Positions 3,029 through 31,987 are shown, counted from the first letter of the stretch. The stretch is DNA of 64,000 bases from an uncultured Acidimicrobiales bacterium (GCA_963759645.1 CAVXAI010000013.1:149571-213570), one strand, 5' to 3'. The notes: generated by a model from the letters alone, not told the origin. Numbers and translations are program-made.

Positions 3029-3034
3029 ACGCGT

Positions 3035-5077: not shown

Positions 5078-5119
5078 CGAGAGAGGCTACCAACGCGCCC
5101 CGCGCAAGCCTCCCGGCGG

Positions 5120-5524: not shown

Positions 5525-5605
5525 GCTTCCTCCTTCCCTCCGGGCAGAGCGTACGAAACTCGTCGGCCGCGGGCTCATCGAGTTCAAGCGGGACGGCCAA
5601 TCGGC

Positions 5606-6320: not shown

Positions 6321-6378
6321 ATCACAGCACGGACGCTCGAGCGACGTTCGCGGGTGACAACGGGAGCAACATCTCCGG

Positions 6379-14243: not shown

Positions 14244-16827
14244 ATGGTCTCGGCGGACACCGATACACCGGAGCGCCCACCCACCGCGTCCGCGCTCGGC
14301 GACGTGGTCTCGGCGCCGATCCTGCTCATCGCGTGTGACTACGACGGGACGATCGCGCCCCACGTCGACGACCCCGCCCGTGCCCTGCCCCAACGCGAGT
14401 CGATCGTCGCCTTGCGCTCGCTCGCATCGCTCCCCGACACCCATGTCGCCGTGATCTCAGGCCGGTCGTTGCGGGACCTGGCCGCACTGAGCCGGTTGCC
14501 GCCCGAGGTGCACCTCGTGGGGTCACACGGCTCCGAGTTCGAGCCCGGGTTCGCTCAGGACCTCCCCGACCAGGTGCGATCCGCGAGACGCAGCGTGATC
14601 CAGCAGCTCGACGAGATCGCAAGCCGGACCCCGGGGGCAATCGTCGAACGCAAGCCGGCGAGCGTGGCCTTCCACTACCGCCAGGCGGCTCCGGCCGCCG
14701 CGGCGGCGGCCGTGAAGGAGATCCTCGACGCGGCGGCGACCCAGCCGGGCGTCACTGCGAAGCACGGCAAGATGGTCATCGAGCTCTCCCTCGTCGACAC
14801 CGACAAGGGCGCGGCCCTCACCCGCATCCGGCAACAGATCGGAGCGGAAGGGACACTTTTCATCGGCGACGACCTCACGGACGAGGACGCGTTCGCGGTG
14901 CTCGCCGGGCCCGACGTCGGCGTGAAGGTCGGATCGGGCCCGACCACCGCGGGCTTCCGAGTGCCCGACACCGACTCCGTCGCTCGGCTCCTCGCGGAGG
15001 TGTTCGGCCGGCGGCGGGCGTGGCTCGAGGGTGACTCCGCACCTCCGATCGAGCGGCACACGTTGCTCTCCGACCAACGCACGGTCGCCCTGCTCACGCC
15101 CGACAGTCGGGTCTCGTGGTTCTGCCACCCCCGCGCCGACTCCCCGGCTGTGTTCGCCGAGCTCCTCGGTGGACCGACGGCAGGGACGTTCGCGATCCGC
15201 CCCGATCCGAGTCGCCCTCCCCTCTCACAGCGCTACGTCGGCGAGACACTCGTCGTCGAGACCCGGTGGCCCGGCCTTCGAGTGACGGACTATCTCGATG
15301 TCGCGCACGGCCGGGTGTTCGAGCCGCCGGGACGCAGTGACCTCATCCGGGTCATCGAGGGCGACGTGAGGGTCGTGATCGAGTTCTCACCTCGCGTCGA
15401 CTTCGGCCGCGTGCCGACCCGCCTCGAGGTCGCCGACGAGAACCTTCTCCGCGTCCGTGGCGCCGGCGACAGCGTGCAGCTGCTCGCACCGGGCGTCGAG
15501 TGGGAGATCCTCGAGGACGGCCCGCACGAACGCGCGGTTGCGAGGTTCGACCTCAAGCCGGACGAGCCCCTGGTGCTCGAGATGCAGGTGGGCGTGGACG
15601 GGACGCCTCCGTGGCATGCGCCAGAGATCGACCGTCGTCGTTCGACGCTCGAGTACTGGAGCACATGGGCGTCCGGGCTCCGGCTGCCCCAGATCTCGCC
15701 CCGCATGGTCCGCCGCAGTGCCCTCACCCTGAAGGCGTTGTGCCATCAGCCCACGGGAGCGATCCTTGCGGCCGCCACGACAAGCCTCCCCGAAGAGATC
15801 GGCGGCAGTCGCAATTGGGACTACCGGTACTGCTGGTTACGCGACGGCGCGATCGCCGCCGATGCGTTGCTGCGGGTGGGCAGCCCACGCGAAGCACTCG
15901 GCTTCCTCGACTGGTTGATCGACCGCGTCGCCCACGTCCCGTCGGCCGAGCGCCTTCGCCCGCTGTATCCGCTGGCCGGTGACGAGTTCCTGCCCGAAGC
16001 GGTGATCCCGACACTCAATGGGTACCGGGGTTCGCGTCCGGTGCGCATCGGCAACCTCGCCGAGCACCAGCTGCAGCTCGACATGTTCGGCCCCATCGTG
16101 GACCTGATCCATCGGCTCGGAGACGAGGGCATGTTCCTCACCGATCGCCTGTGGGACCTCACCAAGGCGCTCGTCGATGCCGTGTGCCAGCGCTGGCGGG
16201 AGCCTGACCACGGCATCTGGGAGGAGCGCCGCAATCCTCGCCACTACGTCGTGTCGAAGCTCCAGTGCTGGGTGGCGCTCGACCGCGGCCTCAAGATCGC
16301 GCGCAACACCGGCCGCGCACCGAACCCCGACTGGGCCGCGACGTGCGAGGAGATTCGCGAGGAGATCCTCACGAGGGGGTGGAACCCCGAGATCGGGTCG
16401 TTCTCGGTCAGCTACGACGACGACGACGTCGACGCCGCGATCCTGCAGATCGCGTTCGTTGGGTTGCTGCCTCCGGATGATCCCCGGGTGATCTCGACTG
16501 TCGCGCGCGTGGAGCGAGTGCTCCGCGAGGGCGAGGTCGTGTTCCGATACCGGCACGAGGATGGTGTGTCGGGTTCGGAGGGCGGCGGGTTTCTGCTCTG
16601 CGCGGCCTGGCTGATCGAAGCGTTCGTCGCGATGCGGCCGTGTCGACGACGCCCGCGAGCTGTTCGACCGCTATCTCGACCTCGCGGGCCCGACGGGTCT
16701 GCTCGCCGAGGAGTGGGACCGCACGATGGAGACCGCCCTCGGTAATTTCCCGCAGGCGTACTCACATGCGGGGTTGATCAACGCAGCAGTCGCGCTCGGC
16801 CGTGCTGGGAGCCGGCCCCTGCGTTGA
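14244..16827 (+). CDS. otsB: Fusion protein: trehalose-6-phosphate phosphatase (HAD) N-terminal domain plus GH15 (glucoamylase/trehalase-type) C-terminal domain; frameshift near 16633
   Basis: The HAD part has LLIACDYDGTIAP, GKMVIELS and FIGDDLTDEDAF. The GH15 part has SLPEEIGGSRNWDYRYCWLRDGA, HQLQLDMFG and EPDHGIWEER. After the join come GRVDDARELFDRYLDLAGPTGLLAEEW...GNFPQAYSHAGLINAA. The ATG at 14244 lies 4 nt after the otsA stop. Confidence 0.85.
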
Positions 16828-16851
16828 GGTACGAAGAGCTACATCGCGCGA

Positions 16852-17353
16852 TCAGAGGTCCGCGTTGGCCAGCGGTGACGAGACTCGAAAGGCCACCTCG
16901 CCGAGCCGGCGGAGATCCTCGGTCAATGCCGCCGTGCGGTCGCGGTGCGACGGGATGACCGTTGCGTACACCACATCCAGGACCTTCGGCGCCCGAATCA
17001 CCTGAAACCGCTGCTCGATCGTCGTGCCCGGGCCGTCTTCGCGGAGCGTGATCGCCCATTCGGTGCTATCGGGGTTGAGCGCGGTCGGGACGGTCCTCCA
17101 TACGAGCTCGTACGGCTCGGCGGACACGACTTCGCACACGCGTCCCCACCGGAACACACTTGCGCGGTTGCGACCGCGGAACCGCGCACCCGGACGAGCC
17201 TCGGTCGCGTCCGCCAGCCACTCGACGCTCACGCACTCGTGGCTCCACTCCCCCGTGCGGGTGACGTCGCGCACGACGTCCCACACTGCGCCGATCGGTG
17301 CGTTGCTCTGCACCTCGCAACGGCCCTGCTTCTGCACGCGTCGCGTTGGTCAT
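16852..17353 (-). CDS. SRPBCC (polyketide cyclase/dehydrase-like) ligand-binding protein; probable frameshift just after the start
   Basis: APIGAVWDVVRDVTRTGEWSHEC...WRTVP...EWAITL are present. The ATG at 17353 overlaps the TetR stop (ATGA) but is one frame off from the body, which begins at the GTG at 17337. Confidence 0.7.
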
Positions 17354-18006
17354 GAGGGTCTCCTTCCTCTCCTCGCTTCGGGTTGCATGACCTGCTCGAG
17401 CGTCGTGGCCATCCACTGCTCGTATTGCGCGGGCGTCCACCCCGAGATGTCGACGAGCAGCTCGTAGACCTCGGGGCTCGTGAGCGCCCACAGCCCGTCG
17501 CGCTCGGTCGGTGTCGCCGGGCGACCGAGGATCAGCGCCGCGCTCGCGGCCACGTCGGAGCGTTGCCGCTCCCGGGTGTCGCGAAGCACCTCGCCCATCT
17601 CCTGGTCGCTCGCCGCGGCCTCGCGAACCACCTTGCGCATCGGCGCCGTTCGCTCGTAGATGCCGGTCAGGAGGCGGGCCGCGGCGGCCGTGCGATCACG
17701 ATGGCTGCCAGTTCCCATCCGCGCGAATTCAGGTCGTTCGGCCACGGCGATCGGCTCGGCATCACCCACCACCGCGACATCGACCACTGCTTGCAGCAGC
17801 GCCCGCTTCGAGGAGAAATGGACGTACAGGGTCTCGGTGGCGACGCCAGCTTCGGCCGCGACCTCGCGCATGCCGGTACGAGACCAGCCCCTGTCGATGA
17901 AGAGCGCCCGTGCAGCATCGAGCAGCGCTCTGCGTGTCTCGGCGGCGCGGCGAGCCCGGAGCGGTGACCGGTACTGCCGACTCCTCGAGGCCTGCTTCGC
18001 GGGCAC
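17350..18006 (-). CDS. TetR/AcrR-family transcriptional regulator
   Basis: The N-terminal HTH reads AETRRALLDAARALFIDRGWSRTGMREVAAEAGVATETLYVHFSSKRALL. The ORF is an intact 218 aa. Confidence 0.9.
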   Translation of the reverse strand: MPAKQASRSRQYRSPLRARRAAETRRALLDAARALFIDRGWSRTGMREVAAEAGVATETLYVHFSSKRALLQAVVDVAVVGDAEPIAVAERPEFARMGTGSHRDRTAAAARLLTGIYERTAPMRKVVREAAASDQEMGEVLRDTRERQRSDVAASAALILGRPATPTERDGLWALTSPEVYELLVDISGWTPAQYEQWMATTLEQVMQPEARRGRRPS

Positions 18007-18023
18007 GAGCGACTTTCTAGCAC

Positions 18024-18034
18024 AATACAGTATT
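18024..18034. promoter_or_regulatory. Palindrome AATACAGTATT inside a locally AT-rich patch (18011-18060); candidate TetR operator or promoter
   Basis: It lies immediately upstream of the TetR start at 18006. This is the only conspicuously low-GC stretch in the region. Confidence 0.25.
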
Positions 18035-18121
18035 CACTACAAGTATGTTCTAGATTCTCGGGCTGACGCCTTCGCAGCGGCCCGTGGTGAGCGTGTCGGA
18101 TGTGTCGAATTCCGGCGACGA

Positions 18122-18148
18122 TGTCGAGAATTCGGCGCCTGCTCCGTC
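18122..18148 (+). promoter_or_regulatory. Candidate ECF42-type promoter TGTCGA-N17-CGTC upstream of the DGPF gene
   Basis: TGTCGA is at 18122-18127, followed by a 17-nt spacer and CGTC at 18145-18148, about 70 nt before the ATG at 18221. Further TGTCG(A/G)A copies occur at 18103 and 18094. The motif is recalled from ECF41/42 literature and was not computed. Confidence 0.35.
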
Positions 18149-18220
18149 TCAGGGGTGCATCCGGTCGGCACGGCCGACAGCACACAGTCGGCAGAGCCGA
18201 CGTCAAACTGGGAGGACACC

Positions 18221-18628
18221 ATGGCCAAGTACCTATTGCTCAAGCACTACCGAGGTGCGCCGGCGCCCGTCAACAATGTCCCGATGGACCAGTGGACGCC
18301 CGACGAGGTCGAGGCACACATCCGGTTCATGAACGACTTCGCAGCTCGGCTCGAGAGCAGCGGCGAGTTCATCGACGGACAGGCGCTGTCGCCCGACGGC
18401 ATGTGGGTCCGCTACGACGGCGAGGGGCGGTCGCCGGTGACCGACGGTCCATTCGCCGAAACGAAGGACTTGATCGCGGGATGGATGGTCATCGACGTCG
18501 ACACCTACGAGCGAGCGATCGAGCTCGCGGGTGAGCTGTCGGCAGCGCCTGGGGCCGGGGGCGAACCGATCCACGAATGGCTCGAGGTCCGGCCATTCCT
18601 GACCGCGCCGCCCAACTTCACCCACTGA
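18221..18628 (+). CDS. YCII-related DGPF-domain protein
   Basis: MAKYLLLKHY...SPVTDGPFAETKDLIAGWMVIDVDTYERAIELAGE are present. A GGAGGA RBS lies upstream of the ATG at 18221. Confidence 0.85.
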   Translation: MAKYLLLKHYRGAPAPVNNVPMDQWTPDEVEAHIRFMNDFAARLESSGEFIDGQALSPDGMWVRYDGEGRSPVTDGPFAETKDLIAGWMVIDVDTYERAIELAGELSAAPGAGGEPIHEWLEVRPFLTAPPNFTH

Positions 18629-18636
18629 CCCAATCG

Positions 18637-19793
18637 ATGAACACGGACGCAGTCGAGCTCCGCGAGCTCGTCCCACGAGTCTTGAGCGTCCTCGTACGTC
18701 GCGGAGCGGACTTCGCGACGGCCGAGGATGCCGTCCAAGAGGCGCTCATCCGGGCGCTCTCCGCGTGGGGGACGAGCCGCCCGCCGACCCCACGGGGTGG
18801 CTCATCACGGTCGCGTGGCGAGCCTTCCTCGACATGACGCGGGCAGATGCTGCTCGGCGCGACCGCGAGGTCCGATTCGACACCGAACCGCCGGCTGGCG
18901 CGATCCCGAGCGCCGACGAGACACTGCGCCTTTACTTCCTTTGCGCGCACCCCGATCTGACGTCGTCGTCGGCGGTTGCGTTGACCCTCCGAGCCGTGGG
19001 TGGCCTCACCACACGCCAGATCGCTCGGGCATATCTCGTGCCCGAGCCGACCATGGCGCAGCGCATCAGCCGCGCCAAACGCATAGTGAGTCGGGCCGGG
19101 GTCGATCGTCCCGGCGACGTAGGCACAGTGATGCGGGTGCTGTACCTCGTCTTCAACGAGGGCTATTCCGGCGACGTCGATCTCGCGGCCGAGGCGATCC
19201 GACTGACCCGGCAGCTGGTCGTCTTGGTGGACGACCCGGAGATCCACGGTTTGCTCGCCCTGATGCTCCTCCACCATGCCCGCCGCCGCAGCCGCACCCG
19301 GGCGGACGGAAGCATCGTGCCTCTCGCCGAACAGGACCGCAGCCAGTGGGACACAGGGCTCATCGTCGAAGGCATCGACATCGCCCGCGCTGCGCTCGCG
19401 CGCGATCAGCTCGGCGAATACCAGGCGCAAGCGGCGATCGCCGCGCTCCATGCCGACGCGCCGCGTGTCGAGGAGACCGACTGGGTCCAGATCGTGGAGT
19501 GGTACGACGAGCTACTCCGGTTCGCCGACACTCCGATCGTTCGGCTGAACCGTGCGGTCGCAGTCGGAGAGGCCGACGGCGCCCCCGCAGGACTGGCGGC
19601 ACTCGCCGAGATCGACGAACACGTCCCACGCCGCGAAGCGGTCGCCGCCTACCTCCACGAGAAGAACGGCGATCTCGAACTGGCGGTGCACCTCTATGCG
19701 AACGCAGCTCGCAACGCACCGAACCTCGCAGAACGCGACCATCAGACGCGCCAAGCCGCGCGACTCAACCAGCACCTGCAACACCACAGATGA
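18637..19793 (+). CDS. ECF sigma factor with a long C-terminal TPR-like extension (ECF42-type); frameshift near 18775
   Basis: Region 2 reads AEDAVQEALIRALSAW | GWLITVAWRAFLDMTR. Region 4 reads LRAVGGLTTRQIARAYLVPEPTMAQRISRAKR. An extension of about 200 aa follows (NEGYSGD...EYQAQAAIAALHA...). The gene is linked to a DGPF gene. Confidence 0.85.
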
Positions 19794-19821
19794 CTCGGAG
19801 CGGGCGTGAAGCGGTCAAGTC

Positions 19822-20358
19822 GTGTCTGGCGGGCAGGATGATCGAGTGACGACGCTGCACCTACTGCGCCACGCGAAGTCCAGCTGGGATGACGCGATGA
19901 TCCCCGACCACGATCGACCGCTCGCTCCTCGAGGTGCTCGTGCGGCTCGAAGGATCGCTGCCCATCTTCCGTCGGCAGGCATCCATCCGGACCTGGTGCT
20001 GTGCTCGTCGTCCCGGCGCACGCTCCAGACGCTCGAGGCGCTACGACCGGCACTCGGCGAGACGGCACTGGTGTCGATCGAACCCGAGCTGTACGGCGCT
20101 GATGCCTCGGAGATCCTGGAGCGGCTCCGGACCGTCGACGCACCGATGCCACAGGTCCTGGTGATCGCGCACAACCCCGGCCTCCAGGATCTCGCGATCG
20201 AGCTGTCTGGCGACGGCGATGCTGTCCTGCTGAACCGGCTGCGAACGAAGTTCCCTACGGGGGCGCTCGCGACATTCGACGTTCACGTCAGCTGGGCCGA
20301 GCTCGGCCGAGGCAACGCGCACTTGACACACCTCGTGACGCCGAAGGACCTCTCATGA
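19822..20358 (+). CDS. SixA-like histidine phosphatase family protein
   Basis: Motifs LHLLRHAKS...RPLAPRG...SSSRRTLQT...VIAHNPG are present. Confidence 0.8.
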   Translation: MSGGQDDRVTTLHLLRHAKSSWDDAMIPDHDRPLAPRGARAARRIAAHLPSAGIHPDLVLCSSSRRTLQTLEALRPALGETALVSIEPELYGADASEILERLRTVDAPMPQVLVIAHNPGLQDLAIELSGDGDAVLLNRLRTKFPTGALATFDVHVSWAELGRGNAHLTHLVTPKDLS

Positions 20359-20428
20359 ACGAGGTTGCAGGGATCCCGTAAACCCGGACGGCGCCCGCAA
20401 GTGTGGGCGCACGTTCGCTCAACGTTCA

Positions 20429-20560
20429 GTGCGTCAGGACGTCGCAGCGGCAGCGGCCTCGATCATTTTCGTGACCGCGTCGGGTCGGGTGATGAGCGAG
20501 AGGTGGCCGGCCTTCACGTGTTCGATCGTCGCGTTGGCGTGCTCGGACATGAATCCCTGC
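20429..20560 (-). pseudogene. C-terminal remnant (about 42 aa) of an alpha/beta hydrolase
   Basis: The remnant reads MQGFMSEHANATIEHVKAGHLSLITRPDAVTKMIEAAAAATS*, which includes the catalytic-His region. No upstream body exists on this strand. Confidence 0.5.
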
Positions 20561-20869
20561 ATCCGGACACATCCTCTGCAACAGCGTCCTCGCGAACCTC
20601 GAACCCGGTCCTCAGGACGTGAGGGTCAACTACAAGAACGACGCACGGCCGCCGCTGCTGTTCGTCTCCGGCGAACACGATCACCTGATGCCGCCCACGG
20701 TCCAACGGTCGAACGCGACGCACTACGAGTCGAACACCATCACCGAAGTCGTCGAGTTCCCGGCCGTTCCCACCTCATGCCTGCGCAGGAAGGCTGGGAG
20801 GAAGTCGCTGACAAGGCGCTCGAATGGGCACTCGCCCACGTCGGCCAGACCGCGACGGCGCAGCTGTAA
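20553..20869 (+). pseudogene. C-terminal remnant (about 105 aa) of a second, different alpha/beta hydrolase; internal frameshift near 20765
   Basis: The remnant reads NSVLANLEPGPQDVRVNYKNDARPPLLFVSGEHDHLMPPTVQRSNATHYESNTITEVVEFP | SHLMPAQEGWEEVADKALEWALAHV. An in-frame stop lies at 20550 and no N-terminal half is present upstream. Confidence 0.6.
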
Positions 20870-20964
20870 ATCCGGCGTTCGTCGCGTCGCTGCGAGGTCA
20901 CCGCCGCGCTCGGCCAGCGCAGACCCGGCCGGGCATCGATGACACAACTCGGTTATCCAGCCGG

Positions 20965-22071
20965 TTAGCGATCGGTGGCGGCGTCCTCGTCGAGGGCTCT
21001 CCGGAGCGCTTTTCCTGACCGAGTCAGCATCCTGCGACCTCCGCGCCGGAGGATGCGGAATCGGAACCGCGTCAACAGTCCGCAGTCCTCGAGTCGATAC
21101 CTGTAGCGGACCATCGTTCCGGTGTCGGTGGGTGTGAACTCGAAGGTCTCGATGCAGGGGACGAAGAGCGGCCCGCGACCCAGGGGGACGAAGCGGGTGG
21201 TCAAGTAGCTGTACGGGCGCCAGTCGAGGTATTCGCGCAACGCGTCGCCGTGAACCCCGTGGGCGCAATGGCTCGAGGCCCCCGGTCCGAGCCTTCCTTG
21301 CTGGTTGGGCTGGTTCTTGATCGCGGTCTGCAGCGGCTGCCAACGCAACCGTTTCTCGGGATCGACGAAGTACTGCCACACAACGGCCGGCGGATACGGA
21401 TGCTCGCCGAAGGTGATCTCGACGTCGGCATCCTCGGAGCCGATGTAGACCCTGCGGGCTTCGCGCATCCGGGCAATGGCCGGCTCGAGGTCGTGCACGC
21501 CCCCCGTCGTCTGACCGAACGGCTCGAAGGACTCGCTGTGCGAGGGCAGGACGAACGATGGGGGCATGCGTTGCAGGCAGGGGTCCGTGAGGAAGGCGTA
21601 GGCATGCGGCCCGCCGCCGTCGCCCACGGTGTTCTTCAGCAGGCGGTGGACGAGGATGACGTCCGGTCCGGCGAGGTCCTCCCGGTCGCCGTCAAAGCTG
21701 AGCACATATGTGCCGTAGTGGACGACGAACTTCAGGTCCAGCGAACCGATCGACGCGCACGCGACACAGCGGCACGTAGTCCCGCGCTTCATGTCCAACA
21801 GGCGGTTGGAGAAGTCGAAATAGCAGCTCTCGATGAGCTCCAGAAGCCGCTCACCGTCGTCGAACGATTTCTCGTCCGCGTAGCAGAACACGGCGTCGCC
21901 TTCGAACTGGACGAAGCGCATCGGAGGCGAAAGCCGCTCGCGGATGAGCGCTGTCAGCTCGTGGACGATCGCGTTGGCGTGCTCGAGCTCGGTGCGGACC
22001 AGGAACGCCGTGTAGCCCGAGATGTCGGCCAGCACCAGGTAGCCCCGCCGGGTCCGCTGATCCCGTGACAC
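20965..22071 (-). CDS. DUF2652 (nucleotide-cyclase-like) domain fused to a C-terminal SRPBCC domain
   Basis: YLVLADISGYTAFL and FVQFEGDAVFCYA mimic the two metal-Asp strands of class III cyclases. The C-terminal domain reads PPAVVWQYFVDPEKRLRWQ...FEFTPTDTGTMVRYRY. The ORF is an intact 368 aa. Confidence 0.8.
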   Translation of the reverse strand: MSRDQRTRRGYLVLADISGYTAFLVRTELEHANAIVHELTALIRERLSPPMRFVQFEGDAVFCYADEKSFDDGERLLELIESCYFDFSNRLLDMKRGTTCRCVACASIGSLDLKFVVHYGTYVLSFDGDREDLAGPDVILVHRLLKNTVGDGGGPHAYAFLTDPCLQRMPPSFVLPSHSESFEPFGQTTGGVHDLEPAIARMREARRVYIGSEDADVEITFGEHPYPPAVVWQYFVDPEKRLRWQPLQTAIKNQPNQQGRLGPGASSHCAHGVHGDALREYLDWRPYSYLTTRFVPLGRGPLFVPCIETFEFTPTDTGTMVRYRYRLEDCGLLTRFRFRILRRGGRRMLTRSGKALRRALDEDAATDR

Positions 22072-22191
22072 AGGCCACGATACTTGCAGCCGACACGGCC
22101 CCGAGCGCCTCGACTATGGCATCACGCGCTCACCTCTTGCGCTGCTAGGGCCAGCTCGACGGGCAATCTGTGCGTGCAGGCTGCCGACGAG

Positions 22192-23049
22192 TTAGCGGCC
22201 CAGATACGCGAACAGGTGCGCCTCGCCGATTCCCTTCAGGGTGTACATCCCACGATCGTCAAACGCGACATCGGATGCAAGCACGAGAGTGCGTGTCAGT
22301 TCCGAGGCGAGTACCTCATCCGGCCCGGCCGCCTGCGCGATGCGCGCCACCTCATGCACTGCGACTCCACGGATGTCGGCGGCGACGACCTCGACCTCAC
22401 CAACGTGGACTCCGGCGCGCATGTGAAGCCGCTCGCGATTCGTTCGCTCTCGAATCTCTCCGGCGCACCAAAGCGCCTGCGCGGGACCGTCAAAGGTGAC
22501 GAGCATCCCATCACCGGTCGTCTTCACTTCGCGGCCGTCGAAGCGTTCGAGTTGGGTTCGCACCATCTCGTAGTGCGCCGAAAGCATGTCACGCCACACG
22601 GAGTCTCCAACGGTCGCAGCGGTTGGCGTCGAGTCGACGAGGTCGGTGAGCAGCAGTGTCAGAAGACGCCGACTCTTCGTGGCACGGAAGGAATTGAAGG
22701 CGCGTACGCCGCCCCATTCGATTGTGCTGACTGGCGCGTCGCCGACGACATAGCCGTCGTGACCCGGCGGCATGTCATACACGTCACCCGCGTGAAGCTC
22801 AGTGCGACTGCCGTCCGGATATTCGAACGCGAATGTGCCCGAAAGAATCGTGCCGACGTGACGGGCTTGGCACCATTCACCCCCGACGATCGGGCGCATG
22901 TGAACGGACCACCGCCAACCGGGCATCGCCGTTGAGTGAGCAACAGTGAGATCGCCGACCGTCACCGCGTGTTGCACGACACCAGGGTTCTCGAACACCT
23001 CGTCCGGATGCTCGAAGGACTTCGATTGCCCCGCCACGGCGGCAATCAT
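22192..23049 (-). CDS. Cupin-domain / class III adenylate-guanylate cyclase fusion
   Basis: The cupin part reads GTILSGTFAFEYPDGSRTELHAGDVYDMPPGHDGYV. The cyclase part has LLLTDLVDSTPT, VKTTGDGMLVTF, RAGVHVGEVE and GVAVHEVARI. The ORF is an intact 285 aa. Confidence 0.85.
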   Translation of the reverse strand: MIAAVAGQSKSFEHPDEVFENPGVVQHAVTVGDLTVAHSTAMPGWRWSVHMRPIVGGEWCQARHVGTILSGTFAFEYPDGSRTELHAGDVYDMPPGHDGYVVGDAPVSTIEWGGVRAFNSFRATKSRRLLTLLLTDLVDSTPTAATVGDSVWRDMLSAHYEMVRTQLERFDGREVKTTGDGMLVTFDGPAQALWCAGEIRERTNRERLHMRAGVHVGEVEVVAADIRGVAVHEVARIAQAAGPDEVLASELTRTLVLASDVAFDDRGMYTLKGIGEAHLFAYLGR

Positions 23050-23298
23050 TGAGCCGAAACTTCGCGGAGGTCAACCGGCGGGCTGAGGCGACCACAAAGC
23101 ACGCACTCACTCACCGACTCTCGACACGCGCCATAGAGGCTTTGTGCACACGCGGTCTTCCGGACGAGCCCGACGACGCCCGCGACGCGGCACAAGCCCG
23201 ACTTCGAGAGCGGGGGAGCTGACCCGGAGTCGGGGCTCGCGATCAGTGGCGACGCGTGAGGACTTTGCGCGTTACATACAGACGATCCGAGGGTTGGT

Positions 23299-23469
23299 TC
23301 ACCGCGGCGGCAGCTTCGCTCCGATGCAGCCGGCGGTCGAGCACTTCGCCCGCGCGACCTCACGCTCGACGCGCTTGCCATCGTCGTTGAGGCGGGCTTC
23401 GTAGGTGACGTTGACGCTGTGGCGGAGGCAGTAGGCGCATTGGACGGTTCGGACGATTGAGTCGGGCAT
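23299..23469 (-). CDS. 56-aa zinc-ribbon miniprotein (below the ORF-track cut-off), probably leaderless
   Basis: The protein reads MPDSIVRTVQCAYCLRHSVNVTYEARLNDDGKRVEREVARAKCSTAGCIGAKLPPR*, with CxxC ... CxxxC. A TACACT (TANNNT) -10 box at 23476-23481 ends 6 nt before the ATG, and no SD is present. Confidence 0.45.
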   Translation of the reverse strand: MPDSIVRTVQCAYCLRHSVNVTYEARLNDDGKRVEREVARAKCSTAGCIGAKLPPR

Positions 23470-23524
23470 CGAACAAGTGTACGATGAGGGGTGGGCGACT
23501 GCGCCCCGAGAGGTTCGGCTCCGG

Positions 23525-23885
23525 GCTAGCTCTTGGTCGTCACCGAGATGTCGTAGAAGGCCGTCGCGTTGTTTACGGGGTGGTAGTCACGGGTGCCGAT
23601 CGCCAGGTCGCCGTTGGGCCTCAAGCTGCCGGAGTCGCGAGCGCTGCGCTTAGTTCTGCAGGCATCGTCGCGACCTTCCGCCGTAGCTGTGCCCCACCAG
23701 GATCACGTCCTTGCCCAGTGCGGACGCATGACGCAACAGTTCTTGTGGCGCACATCAGAGCGCGGGAACGGCCGCGCGGCGCTCGTCGACAAACGGCGCG
23801 ACCGCCGAGTGTGCAATCCCGGAAGCAATCCGGTACCAGAACCCGAAATCCACCGGCCGGAACCCTTGCAGCACTACGGGCTTTT
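23525..23885 (-). pseudogene. N-terminal remnant of an alpha/beta hydrolase (nucleophile elbow present, in-frame TGA, frameshifts)
   Basis: The remnant reads KPVVLQGFRPVDFGFWYRIASGIAHSAVAPFVDERRAAVPAL*CAPQELLRHASALGKDVILVGHSYGG and then loses frame. It abuts tRNA-fragment copy a. Confidence 0.55.
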
Positions 23886-24062
23886 CGTGTCGGAGGGGGG
23901 GACTTGAACTCCCACCGGTCCTGTGATCGCCCGTAGCGCGCTTGCTCTCGGTGTCACGGTTCCGCAGGTCGCGTGGCCTTTCTCGTCGACCCCGCGTGGG
24001 CCGCCGATGGCGGCTGTCCACGGTTGTCTGTGACCAGGGTTGTGACCGCGCTTCGACGCACG
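23850..24062 (-). repeat. tRNA-Leu 3'-end-containing repeat, copy a (core 23888-23914)
   Basis: The core tgtcggagggggggacttgaactccca matches the tRNA T-arm and acceptor 3' half. The left flank is ccggaaccc..ttgcagc. About 150 nt of the right flank is homologous to copy b. Confidence 0.75.
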
Positions 24063-24303
24063 ATGACCAGATCTCGGGACCCATCCCGCCGCCCGGCATC
24101 GCCTGCCGACACCCGTGCGTCGCGGGCTCGTCGAAACGGATGAAACCGGGACGGGAGAGGGGTGTACTCGTCAACTTCTAAGCGGCTACCGCGGCCCCCA
24201 CCCGAGACCATCAACGCCTACCTCGATGAGGCCTACGAACTCGGCAAGGGCTTCAGCGTGCCGCGAGCACCGCGAGCATCGCTCGCCACCAACTAAGCCG
24301 GCC

Positions 24304-24713
24304 ATGAGGCGGCTACCGATCGTCTGGCACCGCCTTGTGTGAGCGGAGGCCGAACGTGCGACCGCTGCGCAGCAACCCAACACGAAGTCGAACACGCTTT
24401 GCACACCCTCGAAGAGGCGCTCCGGCCACTCGAACCACAATTTGAGATCCGCGAACTCGACGAGGTCTCGTTCGAGCAGGGCCCGGCTGCCTCGAACCGC
24501 ATTTGGATCGCCGGTAAGCCGGTCGAAGAGTGGCTCGAAGGCACCGTCGGAAGCGGCCGCTGCTGCTCACTGTGCGGCGACTCGGAGTGCCGCACCGTCG
24601 AGGTCCGGGGCACCACCTTCGACGCCATACCAGAGCGACTCATCCTGCAGGCGTCGCTGCTCGCCATCTCAAGGCTCCTCGACACGCCACCGGCCTCGAG
24701 CGCCTGTGCGTGA
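24304..24713 (+). CDS. DUF2703-family CxxC protein; frameshift near 24340
   Basis: The protein reads MRRLPIVWHRLV | SGGRTCDRCAATQHEVEHALHTLEEALRPL...SNRIWIAGKPVEEWLEGTVGSGRCCSLCGDSECRTVEVRGTTFDAIPERLILQASLLA. This matches the recalled DUF2703 pattern (W.RLV..G.TC.RC ... SNRIW..G.P.E.W ... CC..CG...CRT.EV.G..Y..IP). Confidence 0.7.
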
Positions 24714-24757
24714 GACTCGAAACCGGCAGCGAGAATGTCAGGTCAAACGTTCAGAGC

Positions 24758-24970
24758 GACCCGGAACCACTTCCGTTCCAGCAATCGGACATATCTCGGT
24801 GTCGGAGGGGGGCTTGAACCCCACCGGTCCTGTTCTTGTCTGCGCTGGCTTGGCCTTCGGTGTCACTGGTTCTTCAGGTCGCGGGCCATCGCCTTGACTC
24901 CGACCAAGCCGCCGTTGTCGCTTGTCCGCGGCAGTCTGTGACCATCGAGGTGACCGGCGGTGGTGCACGC
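24758..24970 (-). repeat. tRNA-Leu 3'-end-containing repeat, copy b (core 24800-24823)
   Basis: The core is tgtcggaggggggcttgaacccca. The flanks are homologous to copy a on both sides, at an estimated 65-70 percent identity by eye. Confidence 0.75.
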
Positions 24971-25283
24971 TTGAACTCGGGCGCGTCTGCGTGCCACCTG
25001 GTGATCGGGGTTCGCTGCGGCAAGAAACGACAGCGACACTGATTTGGACGGGTTGTCATGTGATGAGGTCGAGGAGGCGTTGCAGTGCTGAGCGGGCGTC
25101 CAGTCGTGTTCTTGGTGTGCTCCGAGAGGTCCGAGCAGCTTGTCGCGATCCCGATTCGGGAGCCGCCACGCAAATTGGGGCGTGGGCGGCGCCCGTTCGC
25201 GCAGCTCCGTGCGTCTGACTTTCCCGAGAACTCGAGCACACACCGGCTGAGCGAGACGGCGCCGGACCACGTCTTGGCGACCG

Positions 25284-28200
25284 TCAGTCGCACACGGAGC
25301 GCGCCAACAACGCATGTCGCGGCATCCCGAGCGCCTCGTAGCCGTCGATCGCTTCCGCGGCCATCGCGCGCGCGGCCTCGCGGTCGCTTGCCAGACCGCG
25401 CAGATGGAGCATCCGCGCGTAGAAGCGCCCGGCATCAATGACTTCGAGCCGCATCGGAAGCTCAGTAGCGCGTTGGATCGCGTCCTGGTAGTGGCCCTCC
25501 GCCAGCGTCCAGTCCCCCGCGCAGGCCGCCGAGATCCCGCACAAGGTGTCGAGCAGGCGGTAGTCCCAGCTGCGCATCAGGCTACCGGTGGCCGCGAGTT
25601 CGACCATCGCGTCGTACAGCGACGCAGCCTCTTCAGTCGCACCGAGCACCGCGAACGCCTCAACAGCGGCGGCCGCGAGGCCCCACTTCGTCGTGGAGTT
25701 TTGACGTCCGCGCACGGGGAACTCGGGTCGCGCGGCGTCGATCAACTCCAGCGCGCGCTGCCGGTTGCCCAAGTATGCGTGCATGAGGAACAGCCGTCCC
25801 AGGTGTCCTCCAGCCGCGCTGCGGCCTTCGAGACGCGCCGCCGCCTCGAACTCGGCGACCGCTTCGCCCCAGCGGCCGGCCCAAAACATCGCTTGGCCGA
25901 CGCGCGTGTGGCCGACCGACATCATCCACGGGAATCCCATCGCGCTGCCGAGCTCCAGCGCATACCGGCCGCGCTGCTCGAGAACCGCCGCATCCGGATG
26001 CCGACCGAACTCTTGGAACGTCTGGCTCTGCTCGGCAAAGACGTACGCCGACCAGTTGCCGAGCCGCTCCGCGAGCGCGAGCCCCTCGCTGTCCGGCGTC
26101 AGCGGCGTCCCCGAACCGACCGAGCCAGCCGAGTGACGTGCCGAGATACCCCATCACGTTTGCGACGTTCCATAGGTCTCCCGCTCGGCGAAGGTGCGCG
26201 ATGCTTTCGCGGCCTTCATCGAGCGTGAGCGCATACTGGTGGTACTGGAAGTGGTGCGCCGCCTGCGAGTACAACGCGAGGCCGAGCATCCCATCGTCAT
26301 CGTGCGCCCGCGCCGCGTCGATTGCCTCCCGGAACTCGTCCTCCGCGCGGTCGTAGTCTCCCGCCTGACTGGCAAGCTGGCCAGCAAGTGCGCAGAACCC
26401 GGCGCGGTAGGCGCTCGGGCGATCCCCGAGCGCGAGCATCCCACGGTCGAGGAGTCGCATCGTCAGGTCGCCTCGGCGCCACAACGCGACTTGGATCGTG
26501 GCACTGAGGCAGAGGCGTGCTACCGCGAGCGCATCGCCCTGTTCCTCCATGGCGTCCAGAGCGTCGCCCCACCGCTCGAGGGCGGCGTCGAGGTGACCGA
26601 GGCTACGCTCGGCCGTTCCCAAACCCTCGAGCACGCGCCGCGCGTCGCGGTCGCATCGTGGCCAAGACGTTCCCAAGCCTGCTCAAAGTAGGCAATCGCG
26701 TCTCCGTAGGCGGCAGCTTCGAGCGCGCGCTCACCGGCCATGACGAGGAAGCGAATGGTGCGATCGGGATCGGCCCAACGCCCAGCGTGCTCGAGGTGGT
26801 AGGCGATCGAGGCCGCGTGCTCCGGCAGTGCGGTCGCGTTGACTTGCTCGAGAGCGTCCGCGAGTCGCGCGTGCAGCCGCTGCCGGTTCACGAGGGTGAT
26901 CCCGTCGGAGAGCGTCCTGCGGATCAAGTCGTGCGCAAACGTGAACCGAACCGACTCGCCCTCGACCGACGAGGTGATGATGCGGGCGCGTTCGGCCTCG
27001 TCGAGGGCGTCGACCAACTCGTTCTCAGGGAGCTCCTGCAGTGCCTCGAGCAGCTCGAAACCGAAGTCGCGCCCGAGGAGACAGACCGTGGTGAGGATCC
27101 GACGCGTGTCGTCACGGAGCGACTCCAAGCGGTTCTCGATCGTGAGTCGGGCACTCTCGGGGACATCGATGTCGCGGAGAAGGACCGTCCTCCAACCCCC
27201 ACCCGCAACCAGCAGACCTTCGTCCGCGAACTGGCGGAGCACCGCGTCGAGGAAAAAAGGATTTCCTTGCGTCGCCTGATGGAGTGCGTTGACCACGTCG
27301 GGCGGAGGCGTGCTCCCGGCGATCGTCATAAGCAACGCCTCCACGTCTGCAGGTGCAAGGTCGTTGAGGACGATGGAGCGCATGAGGTTGCGCCGTTGCA
27401 GCCGCACGAGTGTCTCTCGTAGGGCCGCGGGAACGGATTCATCGCGCGTGTAGGTCGCGGCAACGAAGATCGGCAGGTCGGGCAGCCGTACAGCGAAGGA
27501 CTCGAGGAGCAGGAGCGAGTGCTCGTCGGCCCAGTGAACGTCGTCGAGCAGGATGACCATTGGTCGGACACGCGCGAGGTTTGCGAGCACTTCGCCGACA
27601 GCACCGAACAGGTAACGGCGTTCCTCGCGCGCCGGCATCTTGGCCGGTGGTGGGATCTCTCTGTACATACGCCGGATGACCGGGAGAAGCCGCGCTATCG
27701 CACCGGCATCGTCTCCAAGACAGACGCGGAACTGTTCGGCGCTCATCCTCCGGCGGGACGCGTCGAGGACTTCTACGAACGGGAGGTATGGGTCCGACTT
27801 ACCGACCGACTCGCACCGAGCAGCGACGAACTGGAAGCCTCTCGCCTCGGCCTCGATGCCAACCTCCGCGACCAGCCGCGTCTTCCCGACGCCAGCGTCG
27901 CCCGTGACCACGACCAGTCCGCCTTGGCCCCCGCTCGCGCGACCGATTCCCTCGCGCAACGATGCTTGCTCAGCCTCGCGCCCGACAAAAGGCGCGCGCC
28001 CTTCGAGGTGCCGTGCCGGTTCGGCGAACTCCCCGTCGGTCGCCTCGAACAGGCGCCACTGCTCGCGAAGACCTTTCAGCCAGAACAACCCGCGATCGAC
28101 GAACGTGTACGCCGGTGCGTCCACTTGCTCACGGACGGCCTCGGAGAGGAGAACCTGCCCGCTGCGCGCCTTTGCGGCAATGCGCGCCGCGGCGTTCACG

Positions 28201-28538
28201 GCGAGACCGAACACATCGCCTTGCTCCTCGATGACCGAGCCGAAGTTCAGTCCGAACCGCACGCGCGGGGCGTCGGCAGGGTGTCCGCTGGCGAGCTCCT
28301 CAAGGCGCGCCCGCATTTCGAGCGCTCCCGCAACGCCGCCAGTGCAAGTCGGGAACACGACCAGGAACCCGTCACCCGTCGACTTCACGACTCGGCCGTT
28401 CTGAGCTTCGGCGGCATAACGAATGACGCGCTCGTGATCACGCAGAAGCGCTACCGCCACCTCGTCGCCGTGGGCGCTCGCGAACGCGGTCGAGCCCTCC
28501 ATGTCTGTGAAGAGGATCGTCATCGGAGGCGTGCTCAT
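25284..28538 (-). CDS. Class III nucleotide cyclase - STAND/AAA_16 P-loop NTPase - TPR multidomain protein (about 1085 aa); frameshifts near 26660 and 26100
   Basis: The cyclase part has ILFTDMEGSTAF, KSTGDGFLVVF and FGLNFGSVIE. Walker A is VVTGDAGVGKTRL and Walker B is MVILLDDVHWAD. TPR-like repeats run through ORFs 25660..26676 and 25284..25940 (...EAIDGYEALGMPRHALLARSVCD*). No C-terminal HTH was found. Confidence 0.85.
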
Positions 28539-28609
28539 ACGGCGCAGTTGCCCAGATCGATTTCCTCATGCACACTTGCACATCTCCAAAGCACCGGAAG
28601 GGGTGTCCG

Positions 28610-28978
28610 ATGCCAGCAGCCGCAGTTGCTTTCAAACTTGGGTCGGTGCTGACGCCAGAGAACCTCGCACAGTTGGGTGGGGACGCGAGTTTGATGTCGC
28701 GCCTCGCCACCGAAGGAAGCTTGGTCGAGCTGGCCCAGGAGTTCGGGGAGATCACCGACCCGGACGAGGTCGAATACTTCAGTTCAATCCCGCGCGCAAT
28801 CCAAGAGTCCATCCGCGTCGCGATCCGGGCGGCGATCCAGGATGGCAAGGGCGTGCAGATCCAGTTCTCGCCCGCATACGACTTTGGGCTCCGCATTTGG
28901 GACTATGGGCAGGCGATCAGCGTGCACTTGGAAGGGCCCTACACCGAAGCCACGATGCCCACGCGACTCTCGCAGTAA
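28610..28978 (+). CDS. Hypothetical 122-aa protein, divergent from the cyclase-STAND gene
   Basis: The ATG at 28610 follows GGAAGGGG. The protein reads MPAAAVAFKLGSVLTPENLAQLGGDASLMSRLATEGSLVELAQEFGEITDPDEVEYFSSIPRAIQESIRVAIRAAIQDGKGVQIQFSPAYDFGLRIWDYGQAISVHLEGPY. I recognise no family. Confidence 0.5.
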   Translation: MPAAAVAFKLGSVLTPENLAQLGGDASLMSRLATEGSLVELAQEFGEITDPDEVEYFSSIPRAIQESIRVAIRAAIQDGKGVQIQFSPAYDFGLRIWDYGQAISVHLEGPYTEATMPTRLSQ

Positions 28979-29117
28979 CCCGTTGCGCGACTGGGGCCGA
29001 CGACCACTCGGTCCCGCCGCGGCCAGGGCTACACCCAAATCCCAGCACGACGCGCCGCCCGACGGCCGTAGTCCGCCGAGCGCGACATCTCCGCTCACAG
29101 GATTCAGCGCAGAACCC

Positions 29118-29200
29118 CACCACCGGAACCCCTTGCAGCCGTAGGCGATCGTGGTGTCGGAGGGGGACTTGAACTCCCACGAGGCCCGTTATCGCCCTGA
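29118..29200 (-). repeat. tRNA-Leu 3'-end-containing repeat, copy c (core 29155-29179, followed by CCA in the tRNA sense)
   Basis: The core is tgtcggagggggacttgaactccca. The left flank caccggaacccc ttgcagcc and about 20 nt of the right flank are homologous to copy a. Confidence 0.75.
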
Positions 29201-29491
29201 CGCACGGCCGTACAACCCGAACCGGTTCTCGCGGGAGTTCGACCGGGCGCTCGCCCGGCACCCCGATCTCGCCCGCATCCGCCTGCACGACCTTCGGCAC
29301 ACCTGGGCCACGCTGGCACTCCAGGCCGGCGTCCCGGTGAAGATCGTTAGTGAGCGTCTCGGTCACTCGACGACATCGATAACGAGCGACACGTATTCAC
29401 ACGTGACACCACGACGAGAGCCGACGCCGCCGAGCGAGTCGCGAGCCTCATCTTCCCGGCGTCGCGACCAACTGGTGACCGGGGACCCTGA
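29181..29491 (+). pseudogene. Tyrosine recombinase (phage-integrase family), C-terminal catalytic about 100 aa only
   Basis: The fragment reads RPYNPNRFSREFDRALARHPDLARIRLHDLRHTWATLALQAGVPVKIVSERLGHSTTSITSDTYSHV (HxxR, LGH, catalytic Y). After a frameshift it continues ADAAERVASLIFPASRP. The N-terminal two-thirds are absent, and homology starts right at repeat copy c. Confidence 0.8.
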
Positions 29492-29530
29492 GACAAAGGG
29501 CAAGCACTGGGGTTGAACTGCGCAAACTTC

Positions 29531-29614
<84 letters not shown>

Positions 29615-29649
29615 CGTGGGGCCGTTGACTGTAGCGAAAGCCTGCTGGC

Positions 29650-29880
29650 TCAGTCGATGAGCAGACCGAGTCCGATCGTGCAGAAGATGAAGACCAACGC
29701 CACGACCACGGTGATGCGGTCGAGGTTCTTCTCCACGACGGTCGAGCCCATCGCGGCCGACCCGATGCCGCCGCCGAACATGTCCGACAGGCCGCCGCCT
29801 TTGCCGCTGTGCAGCAGCACGAGGAAGACCATGACCAGGCCGGCGATCACGTCGACAACGAGGACGAGGGCGGTGAGCAC
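29650..29880 (-). CDS. secG: Preprotein translocase subunit SecG
   Basis: 76 aa, reading MLTALVLVVDVIAGLVMVFLVLLHSGKGGGLSDMFGGG... plus a second TM helix. Confidence 0.9.
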   Translation of the reverse strand: MLTALVLVVDVIAGLVMVFLVLLHSGKGGGLSDMFGGGIGSAAMGSTVVEKNLDRITVVVALVFIFCTIGLGLLID

Positions 29881-29919
29881 GGGTTCCGAGGTTACCAGCG
29901 GGGTCGCAGCGCCCGGCAG

Positions 29920-30951
29920 TCAGACCAGCTCAGCAGCGAGCTCGGCAAAGTGGCAGGCCACGGGGTGGCCCTGTCCACGGTCGATCAGCGCTGGCTCTTC
30001 GGTCGCGCAGATGTCCTGCGCCTTCCAGCACCGGGTGCGGAACCGGCAACCACTCGGCGGGTCGATGGGGCTGGGCACATCGCCGGTGAGCACGATCCGC
30101 TTGCGCTTGCGTTCCTTCTTCGGGTCCGCCATGGGGATCGCCGACAACAGGGCTTGCGTGTACGGATGCGCGGCCTTGGTGTAGAGGTCGTCTGCCGGCG
30201 CCATCTCGACGAGCTTGCCGAGGTACATCACCGCGACGACGTCCGAGATGTGCTGCACCACCGAGAGGTCGTGGGCGATGAAGAGGTACGCGAGCCCGAG
30301 TCGATCCTGCAGGTCCTCGAGGAGGTTCACGACGCCGGCCTGTATCGAGACGTCGAGTGCGGACACCGGCTCGTCGAGCACGACGACACTGGGGTCGAGG
30401 GCGAGCGCTCGAGCGACACCCACGCGTTGGCGCTGTCCACCTGAGAACTCGTGTGGATAGCGGTTGGCGTGCTGCCGGTTCAGCCCGACGAGCGACAGCA
30501 GCTCCTCGACTCGGCTCCGGTGATCCCCGGGCACCTTGTTGATGACAAGCGGCTCGGCGACCGCGGCGCCGATCGTCATCCGGGGATCGAGCGACGCGTA
30601 TGGGTCCTGGAAGACGATCTGCATCTCCCGGCGCAGCGCGCGCATCTGGCGGGGGCCCAGCGTGGTGACCTCCTGCTCGCGGAAGTAGACGGAGCCGGAC
30701 GTCGGCTCGATCAGCCGGAGGATGCAGCGGCCGACCGTCGACTTGCCCGAGCCGGACTCGCCGACGAGACCGAGGGTTTGCGACGGAGCGATCGCGAACG
30801 ACACGTCCGACACCGCCTGCACCACGCCCTTGATGGACTTGATGCCCTTGTGGCTCGTGACGTTGAAGTTCTTCACGAGGTGCTCGACCCGAAGGATCGG
30901 GGGCGTCGATCGGCGCGTCGGGGACGCTCGCTTCGACCGCGATGGTGCTCA
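29920..30951 (-). CDS. Peptide/nickel-type ABC transporter ATPase (OppF/DppF-like); probable frameshift near 30890
   Basis: [37 protein letters not shown] and the C-terminal oligopeptide motif GCRFRTRC are present. The upstream [12 protein letters not shown] and the GTG overlapping the OppD stop lie in different frames. Confidence 0.85.
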
Positions 30952-31987
30952 CTGCTCGATGTCCCAGTGGCCTATGAGCTGCTCGCTGAAGTGGCAGGCC
31001 GCCTCTTGGTCGTGCGCGCCGACGAGCCGGAGGTTCGGCACCTCGACCGTGCAGATCTCCGCCGAGTACTTGCACCGTGGTGCGAAGGCACAGCCCGGCG
31101 GTGGGGCCAGCATGTTCGGCGGCGACCCGGGGATCGGACGCAGCCGATGCGCTTGACCAGTCGGGATCGAGCTCAACAGCCCCACTGTGTAGGGATGTGC
31201 GGGGTTCTCGAACAGGTCGTCGATGTTCGCGAGCTCCACGCTGCGGCCCGCGTACATCACCCGAACACGATGAGCGAGACGGGCGATGACGCCGAGGTCG
31301 TGGGTGATGAAGACGATCGCGCTGCGGGTCAGCTCCTGGACCTGTTGGATGACCTCGAGGATCTGCGCCTGGATCGTGACATCGAGCGCAGTCGTGGGCT
31401 CGTCCGCGATGAGCACTTCGGGGTCGTTGCAGATCGCCATCGCGATCATCGCCCGCTGCCGCATGCCGCCGGAGAACTCGTGCGGGTATTGACGCGGCTC
31501 GTGTCTTCGACTGGGGGATGCCCACCAGGTCGAGCATCTCGATCGCCCGCTTCGTGGCCGCGTCGCCGTTGAGGTCCTGGTGCGCCTGCACGGCCTCGGC
31601 GATTTGGTCGCCGACGCGCAGCACCGGGTTCAGCGCCGTCAGCGGATCCTGGAAGATCATCGCGATCTTCGCCCCGCGGTACTTGCGGGCCTCGCTCGGC
31701 TCGAGCCCGATGAGCTCGGTGCCGCGAAACCTTGCTGACCCGGAGATCTGGGCCGTCCTGTGGAGCAGTCCCATCACGGCGAGCATCGTCACGGACTTGC
31801 CCGACCCCGACTCCCCCACGACACCGAGCACCTCACCGGCGTGGACGACGAGATCGTTCCCGCGCACCGCGTAGACGGGACCGTCTTCGGTGGGGAACGT
31901 GACGTGCAGGTCGCGGATCTCGAGCACGGGCTCACCCGCCGCGGCACCTTCCCGCGCGCTCGCCGCGCCCGGCGTCGTGACCGCCAT
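30949..31987 (-). CDS. Peptide/nickel-type ABC transporter ATPase (OppD/DppD-like); frameshift near 31478
   Basis: The N-terminal half MAVTTPG...VLEIRDLHVTFPTEDGPVYAV...[12 protein letters not shown] lies in the frame of ORF 29930..32449. The C-terminal half (YPHEFSGG)MRQRAMIAMA...ADEPTTALD...GCAFAPRC is ORF 30949..31464. Confidence 0.85.

Follow-up and report, generated by a model that had tools for sequence, protein, structure and literature searches.

Two predicted cyclase-fold genes in a probable mosaic of acquired DNA beside a tRNA-Leu gene of an uncultured Acidimicrobiales bacterium

Introduction

Do three co-directional genes that are framed by pieces of disrupted genes form one system, or do they lie together for other reasons? 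The question is raised by positions 20,429 to 23,885 of a 64,000-nucleotide stretch of DNA (hereafter the window) from an uncultured Acidimicrobiales bacterium (GCA_963759645.1, CAVXAI010000013.1:149571-213570), in which minus-strand genes for a mini-protein of 56 amino acids (aa), a cupin-cyclase fusion and a DUF2652::SRPBCC fusion are surrounded by three alpha/beta-hydrolase pieces. The original prediction, made from the sequence of the window, read this region as a rearranged or inserted cassette of two ligand-sensing cyclase-fold enzymes. It further proposed that two of the hydrolase pieces were the halves of one gene separated by an inversion of the intervening 3 kb, and considered the pairing of a canonical cyclase with a DUF2652 paralog to be undescribed. 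Its observations are correct and its interpretation is mostly wrong: the three genes do not form a conserved three-gene system, nor did an inversion create them. The genome to which the window belongs, a metagenome-assembled genome (MAG) of 4.26 Mb in 21 contigs with 69% GC, is referred to below as G000, and a sister species of the same genus, G010, was used for comparison.

A mosaic between a phosphatase gene and a tRNA

The stretch 20489-23887 is probably a mosaic of separately acquired DNA in a recombination-prone slot extending from a histidine-phosphatase gene to tRNA-Leu(GAG), a reading which, with the gene functions proposed below, is likely to explain the locus as a whole best. The phosphatase protein is 90% identical to its G010 counterpart, and the nucleotide match between the window and G010 (86-94% identity) continues up to 20488 and resumes at 29528. 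Between these two positions, the synteny comparison revealed wholly different genes in G010, whose slot of ca. 7.2 kb contains an FHA-cyclase, a 1455-aa Ser/Thr kinase-like protein and a membrane protein (L043, G010:C3:2197000-2210000, positions 1303-8108). No counterpart of the DNA holding the three genes was found in the other same-genus genomes, and the GC content of the three-gene stretch is 0.650 versus 0.687 genome-wide. The features of the slot are the following.

19822-20358, plus strand: histidine-phosphatase gene (178 aa; Pfam His_Phos_1, E 2.6e-10), the conserved left flank of the slot
20434-20568, minus strand: C-terminal stub of an alpha/beta-hydrolase, ca. 43 codons with a native stop, from a family of ca. 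280 aa reading '...HSYGG...GHLSLITRPDAVTKMIE'
20553-20869, plus strand: C-terminal fragment of a different alpha/beta-hydrolase, ca. 100 codons with a frameshift near 20760 and a native stop
20965-22071, minus strand: DUF2652::SRPBCC gene (368 aa), predicted class III cyclase-like domain (D16, Q55, D59, I139, R143) followed by a START/Bet v1-type ligand-pocket domain
22192-23049, minus strand: cupin::class III cyclase gene (285 aa), assigned from Pfam Guanylate_cyc and a sub-threshold Cupin_2 match
23183-23244, no strand assigned: core of a short repeated sequence, ca. 60 nt, between the mini-protein and cupin-cyclase genes
23299-23469, minus strand: gene for a four-cysteine protein of 56 aa (C11, C14, C43, C48), with a GC content at third codon positions (GC3) of 0.86, from a lineage-specific, multi-copy family
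23677-23883, minus strand: decayed alpha/beta-hydrolase relic (GHSYGG elbow, 23677-23694; in-frame TGA, 23755-23757)
23888-23914, minus strand: copy of the tRNA-Leu 3' end, an att-like scar bounding the neighbouring island (by comparison with 29531-29556; one extra G)
29151-29516, plus strand: C-terminal remnant of a tyrosine integrase adjoining the tRNA (open reading frame, ORF, ending in ...RIRLHDLRH; counterpart called Phage_integrase in assemblies L063 and L064)
29531-29615, minus strand: tRNA-Leu(GAG), the right anchor of the slot (ARAGORN; Rfam 52.8 bits)

The ORF list, Pfam matches and translations confirmed the three minus-strand genes and the three hydrolase pieces where the original prediction had placed them, together with the GHSYGG motif and the in-frame TGA of the N-terminal piece, and the same was found in seven assemblies. 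The minus-strand stub matches the ends (last 38-41 residues) of five hydrolases of ca. 280 aa (P0001-P0005), retrieved in a search of 5.8 billion proteins, with 83-87% identity; of this stub, G010 keeps just the last 17 codons. The plus-strand piece, which reads ...DHLMPP.../...SHLMPAQEGWEEVADKALEWA..., resembles an intact 278-aa hydrolase encoded at an unrelated locus of G010 (L011), with 72% identity over residues 170-238 and 49% identity, in a shifted frame, over residues 216-269. As for the relic, its first ca. 65 bp (23820-23888) are tRNA-flank DNA common to G010, and translations indicate that its frameshifted remains possibly reach ca. 23480. No intact paralog of any hydrolase piece was found in G000, nor any close relative of the GHSYGG/stub family in 80 related genomes. 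A stitched hydrolase reading gave weak matches only against the PDB (polyneuridine-aldehyde esterase, E 0.018), which were not used for assignment. Judged by these similarities, the hydrolase leftovers stem from at least two genes, and probably from three.

The C-terminal stubs of opposite strands meet with an overlap of ca. 7-16 bp at 20553-20568. The junction near 20555, already suspected to mark a breakpoint, does prove to be one, at which two truncated and unrelated genes abut, and the overlap of their stubs points to illegitimate recombination. The slot holds three intact, unrelated genes together with truncated hydrolase leftovers, the latter apparently brought together by illegitimate recombination at 20553-20568. 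The mini-protein and the hydrolase debris would be bystanders to the cyclase-fold genes.

The slot shares with tRNA-linked genomic islands the tRNA-Leu(GAG), a direct copy of its 3' end, an integrase remnant and a content wholly unlike that of the sister species. In contrast to such islands, the tRNA target, the 3'-end direct repeat and the integrase remnant, all of which are present, bound the neighbouring stretch 23888-29531 and not the three-gene stretch, which lies outside the last repeat. Searches for direct or inverted repeats flanking the three genes found none. 

Several observations on the slot may be added. The content of the G010 slot is again signalling cargo. The sole exact direct repeat of 17 nt (20529-20545 and 21969-21985) encodes EHANA in both the hydrolase stub and the DUF2652 gene and lies 8 bp from the breakpoint; it is probably due to chance. 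An Rfam scan of 15000-32000 returned the tRNA only. The G000 region syntenic with L011 (C8:246113-246889) has no detectable match to a metallo-beta-lactamase-fold gene, hydrolase or AraC-type regulator, and the 300-bp fragment in the window is all that remains in G000 of the L011-type hydrolase.

Support from independent assemblies

The same layout was recovered from seven independent assemblies (nanopore, SPAdes and Logan, from different samples), with 98.8-99.9% identity over 19800-25300, and Logan contigs of four further soil or rhizosphere runs agree with the arrangement of the window. An assembly search found the exact 56-aa mini-protein encoded on 17 contigs. Among the Logan contigs of those runs, no well-supported read or contig joint skipping the three genes was found. 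The frameshift near 20760 in the plus-strand hydrolase piece is present in all independent assemblies. Since none of these assemblies, short-read ones included, differs by an indel within the hydrolase pieces, their stops and frameshifts are real.

Single extra bases occur in the window at ca. 20394-20396, 20911, 23189 and 23488 relative to the assemblies and short-read contigs covering these positions, and are probably long-read homopolymer errors. None of them affects any of the three intact ORFs or either C-terminal hydrolase piece, and that at 23488 falls in the degraded end of the N-terminal relic. Two assemblies of low coverage carry deletions: a frame-breaking one of 37 bp in the DUF2652 gene of the soil assembly L062 (window 21676-21712) and an in-frame one of 9 bp in the cupin-cyclase gene of L065 (window 22688-22696).

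Predicted functions of the two cyclase-fold genes

In the 285-aa protein, Pfam searches identified Guanylate_cyc (PF00211) at 33.8 bits (cut-off 21.9) and Cupin_2 at 19.5 bits, below the cut-off of 27.2; its N-terminal region (residues ca. 4-112) is 37-49% identical to short stretches in Anaeromyxobacter and Thermoproteota records. The closest solved relative of the cyclase domain is that of Rv1900c (PDB 1ybt; phmmer E 2.3e-33). Its expected catalytic positions are occupied by D136 and D180 for metal, K176 and D225 for substrate, H232 replacing Asn, and R236. Rv1900c (LipJ of M. tuberculosis, an alpha/beta-hydrolase::class III cyclase, PDB 1YBT/1YBU) has the same His for Asn, metal-binding Asp pair, substrate Asp and Arg; it differs by its N-terminal alpha/beta-hydrolase, where the window protein has a cupin of ca. 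110 aa, and by an Asn at the substrate position, where the window protein has Lys. Rv1900c is active in spite of the His at its catalytic Asn position (Ramakrishnan et al. 2016, Biol Direct 11:27, PMC4886424). On sequence grounds, the 285-aa protein is very probably an adenylate cyclase, which would probably make cyclic AMP as a homodimer under the control of a small molecule in the cupin domain. Its best relatives, from Gaiellaceae, are 52-53% identical and occupy another conserved context, behind a DNA-ligase-like gene. The GC3 of the cupin-cyclase gene is 0.72 versus 0.86 in both neighbour genes. The sole sigma-70-like promoter match of the region (23045-23074, minus strand, TTGACC-18-AATGAT) overlaps the annotated ATG of this gene; translation may thus really begin four codons further downstream, at the GTG of codon 5, from a leaderless mRNA.

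The 368-aa protein combines DUF2652 (PF10851; 79.9 bits, cut-off 22.1) with a Polyketide_cyc2/SRPBCC domain in its C-terminal 150 residues (30.5 bits, cut-off 27.4). Its AlphaFold model (predicted local distance difference test, pLDDT, 85.6) was compared with solved structures using Foldseek. The N-terminal half matched CyaC as well as a eukaryotic guanylate cyclase (3et6; template modelling score, TM, 0.78) and Rv1900c (1ybu; TM 0.76) with a probability of 1.00, and the C-terminal half matched 3q63 (TM 0.83). A DUF2652 alignment profile gave no significant match among PDB sequences, so that fold comparison alone reaches the cyclases. The Pfam results, the Rv1900c match and the Foldseek superpositions support the reading, made at the outset, of two cyclase-fold enzymes bearing sensor-type domains. 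Neither enzyme falls outside a described family.

DUF2652 was predicted to be a subfamily of class III cyclases, exemplified by M. tuberculosis Rv2561/Rv2562, with conserved aspartates and arginine and, in the actinobacterial group, an Ile for the transition-state Asn; alpha/beta-hydrolase genes were reported among its conserved neighbours, and one Bradyrhizobium member was found fused to a polyketide-cyclase/SRPBCC domain (PMC4886424). The window protein has the metal-binding Asp pair, the Arg and the Ile for Asn of this family. It differs by a Gln for the family Lys at the adenine-specifying position, and the SRPBCC fusion is far commoner than the one reported case: the genome collection contains 563 or more stretches with it, and it is widespread in soil Actinomycetota and Chloroflexota. 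A census of 81-84 relatives of the 368-aa protein showed that D16 is kept in 80 of 81, D59 in all 81 and R143 in 83 of 84. Position 139 is Ile in 69 relatives and Asn in 13, and position 55 is Lys in 77 of 81; the window protein shares its Gln there with a single further relative. Relative to the family signature D, D / K, E / R, the window protein therefore has D16, D59 and R143 together with Q at 55, the Glu position being only loosely mapped. The DUF2652::SRPBCC protein, which retains both metal-binding Asp residues and the Arg but has Ile for Asn, like most of the family, and Gln for the usual Lys, is probably a second nucleotidyl cyclase, which would be gated by a hydrophobic ligand in the SRPBCC pocket.

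The SRPBCC domain resembles START/Bet v1-like domains (MLL2253, PDB 3Q63; AHSA1-like) in its Polyketide_cyc2 match and superposition, and differs from them by its fusion to a cyclase-like domain and by an H268-C269-x-H271 motif that is invariant across the family. A cysteine cluster inserted in the cyclase fold (C83, C100-x-C102-x-x-C105) is likewise invariant in the DUF2652::SRPBCC family; both motifs may be metal or redox sites. The 368-aa protein is 79-86% identical to products of genes in MAGs labelled Thermoleophilaceae, Microthrixaceae and Acidimicrobiia. Nine of ten same-genus genomes have no DUF2652::SRPBCC match, and that of the tenth reaches 43% identity only.

Adjacency of DUF2652::SRPBCC and canonical cyclases

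A profile built from 20 cyclase domains of G000 was used to scan 85 DUF2652::SRPBCC loci (805 kb). The scan detected 27 canonical cyclase domains, with a density per 100 kb of 11.3 within 500 bp of the DUF2652 gene, 3.8 at 0.5-1.6 kb and ca. 2.3 at 1.6-6 kb; in G000 as a whole, 41 cyclase domains amount to 1 per 104 kb. When 83 proteins were placed on a tree, a cyclase within 1.6 kb was present at 14 tips and required 12 changes of state, and the pairing is therefore not one inherited operon. At least seven loci, which span three phyla, have an alpha/beta-hydrolase-cyclase fusion as the neighbour, placed upstream, divergently or convergently. The window displays the commonest arrangement (cyclase upstream, co-directional), with a cupin replacing the hydrolase domain. 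The view that a cyclase-like DUF2652 is undescribed does not stand, since it was published in 2016 (PMC4886424). The pairing with a canonical cyclase is partly supported: it recurs above chance, but in a loose manner and not as a fixed system, a canonical cyclase being next door in ca. 15% of the family loci. Since this adjacency exceeds chance across the family, the two cyclase-fold genes may share one signalling context; a loose, possibly functional association is a tentative suggestion, to which we are inclined to give little credit.

The adjacency of the cupin-cyclase and DUF2652::SRPBCC genes might also have been selected. The enzymes would then form a module of two, for instance as a heterodimer or by supplying separate inputs to a single cyclic-nucleotide pool. 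Such a module would fit the ca. five-fold cyclase enrichment within 500 bp, spread over about a dozen separate clades and several orientations, and the nature of the repeated partner, an alpha/beta-hydrolase-cyclase whose cyclase domain is devoid of the Asn; the partner in the window has the same LipJ-type cyclase domain, in the commonest arrangement. However, within the well-supported subclade of the window gene, whose 10 other members are ca. 73-86% identical, a cyclase neighbour occurs in L035 only, in divergent orientation. The closest cupin-cyclase relatives have no DUF2652 neighbour, genomes of this kind carry ca. 40 cyclase genes, and the numbers behind the statistic are small. We therefore doubt that selection has kept the two genes together. 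It is distinctly unlikely that DUF2652::SRPBCC proteins partner LipJ-type cyclases lacking the Asn (the cupin-cyclase here, alpha/beta-hydrolase-cyclases elsewhere), possibly in a heterodimer whose single competent site would integrate the inputs of the SRPBCC pocket and of the partner's sensor. If this partnership were true, the recurrent loose adjacency would be its genomic trace.

Origin of the relic and the minus-strand stub

The relic (23677-23883) and the minus-strand stub (20434-20568) could be the ends of one ancestral hydrolase gene, once located between tRNA-Leu and the phosphatase gene and split by a foreign insert of ca. 2.9 kb, the G010 copy having been split by a different insertion. 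Both are on the minus strand in collinear order, and one family profile of the ca. 280-aa hydrolases matches both at the proper positions: the stub at 239-279 (independent E-value, iE, 8e-17) and the relic, at its elbow only, at 99-112 (iE 1.2e-4). The relic is also collinear, at low identity, with the N-terminal half of some family members (phmmer; P0015 residues 10-83). In addition, G010 has its own, different insert, on one side of which the 65 bp flanking the tRNA are retained and on the other the final 17 codons of the stub. Yet equal decay is expected of two parts of one pseudogene, whereas the stub is clean and the relic, with its stop and frameshifts, is at most ca. 30% identical to the well-conserved N-terminal halves of the proteins that the stub matches at 83-87%; moreover, ca. 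60 codons from the middle of the gene must also be missing. Because conservation differs so greatly, despite the collinearity and the same broad family, different source genes are favoured for the relic and the stub, and a single split gene is unlikely.

The mini-protein and the question of a three-gene unit

Pfam returned no match to the 56-aa mini-protein save one spurious IL17 hit. Its family comprises 16 clusters among the 5.8 billion proteins, and its named records are Acidimicrobiales MAGs; of the four cysteines, C11 and C14 never vary and C43 and C48 hardly do. At least five intact paralogs are present in G000, in unrelated contexts and all with an upstream TACACT..ATG. The model (pLDDT 84.8) displays a three-stranded sheet, and a fold search with it found no PDB match (best E 1.5). 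The mini-protein is a small zinc-ribbon-like gene product unrelated to both cyclase-fold genes. One paralog, at G000 C16:262922-263568, overlaps the 3' end of a STAS (anti-sigma-antagonist-like) ORF, a hint that the family might act in regulation.

The ca. 60-nt repeat that separates the mini-protein gene from the cupin-cyclase gene has at least eight further copies in G000, with 78-91% identity (C13:447558; C16:306818, 347170, 668461, 673588, 843021 and 843706; C18:61699), as well as copies in G010, and is at times found directly downstream of mini-protein paralogs. This repeat folds no better than shuffled sequence (z 0.70) and has no Rfam match.

That the three genes constitute one dedicated cassette or operon, in which a zinc-ribbon regulator would accompany the cupin-cyclase and DUF2652::SRPBCC, is suggested by their common direction, by the lack of any terminator-like site between them and by an arrangement fixed in every population sampled. 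Against this, the trio is confined to this species: it was repeated in none of the 85 DUF2652::SRPBCC loci, none of the eight cupin-cyclase loci and no other mini-protein locus, recurring in same-species assemblies only, and neither the mini-protein nor a cupin-cyclase ortholog was ever encountered in 15 close and then 80 wider DUF2652::SRPBCC loci. The intact paralogs of the mini-protein each have their own conserved start region, the genes are separated by gaps of 250 bp (mini-protein/cupin-cyclase) and 120 bp (cupin-cyclase/DUF2652), the first of which contains the repeated element, and codon usage is unequal between genes. We thus regard a dedicated cassette as very improbable. Of the cassette originally envisaged, the rearranged or inserted DNA stands, as indicated by a slot unlike that of the sister species and by the adjoining copy of the tRNA-Leu 3' end, and the three-gene cassette does not. 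Least tenable of all is an inversion of the intervening 3 kb that would have split one hydrolase gene into the pieces at 23525-23885 (minus strand) and 20553-20869 (plus strand), for although these hydrolase-like pieces lie at opposite ends of the stretch and on opposite strands, alignment to the same intact G010 hydrolase gave 72% identity for the plus-strand piece and 25% for the GHSYGG piece (residues 2-89, E 0.12), the nucleophile motif is GHSYGG in the window and GHSAGG in G010, the GHSYGG piece resembles the N-terminal half of another hydrolase family, and a search for inverted repeats at the end points found none.

Neighbouring cyclase gene

Beyond the three-gene stretch, the window shows a cyclase-AAA-TPR gene at 25284-28538 as three separate ORFs. 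Two short-read Logan assemblies of this locus (L063 and L064) have a single gene of 1079 aa instead, and the frameshifts of the window at these positions are therefore probably long-read assembly errors.

Conclusions

Several points weigh against reading the locus as a mosaic that houses two working cyclase-fold enzymes. Neither an integrase nor bounding repeats belong to the stretch 20489-23887 itself. The rare K55Q replacement, together with the 37-bp deletion in one population (L062), could mean that the DUF2652 copy is decaying rather than working, and we know of no DUF2652 protein with enzyme activity on record. The adjacency statistic is based on nine nearby cyclase domains, with distal flanks as the control and no matched random genes of the same genomes. 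None of the RNA runs checked holds the locus, and the three co-directional genes may be co-transcribed.

A mosaic of separately acquired DNA nevertheless remains the probable explanation of the locus. What appeared to be a cassette framed by the halves of one gene is, in this reading, a patchwork typical of tRNA-adjacent variable DNA, and the finding is mainly a correction of annotation. The catalytic residues of the DUF2652::SRPBCC family are strongly conserved, and M. tuberculosis carries DUF2652; if the proposed function is true, the family may represent a ligand-gated branch of cyclic-nucleotide signalling.

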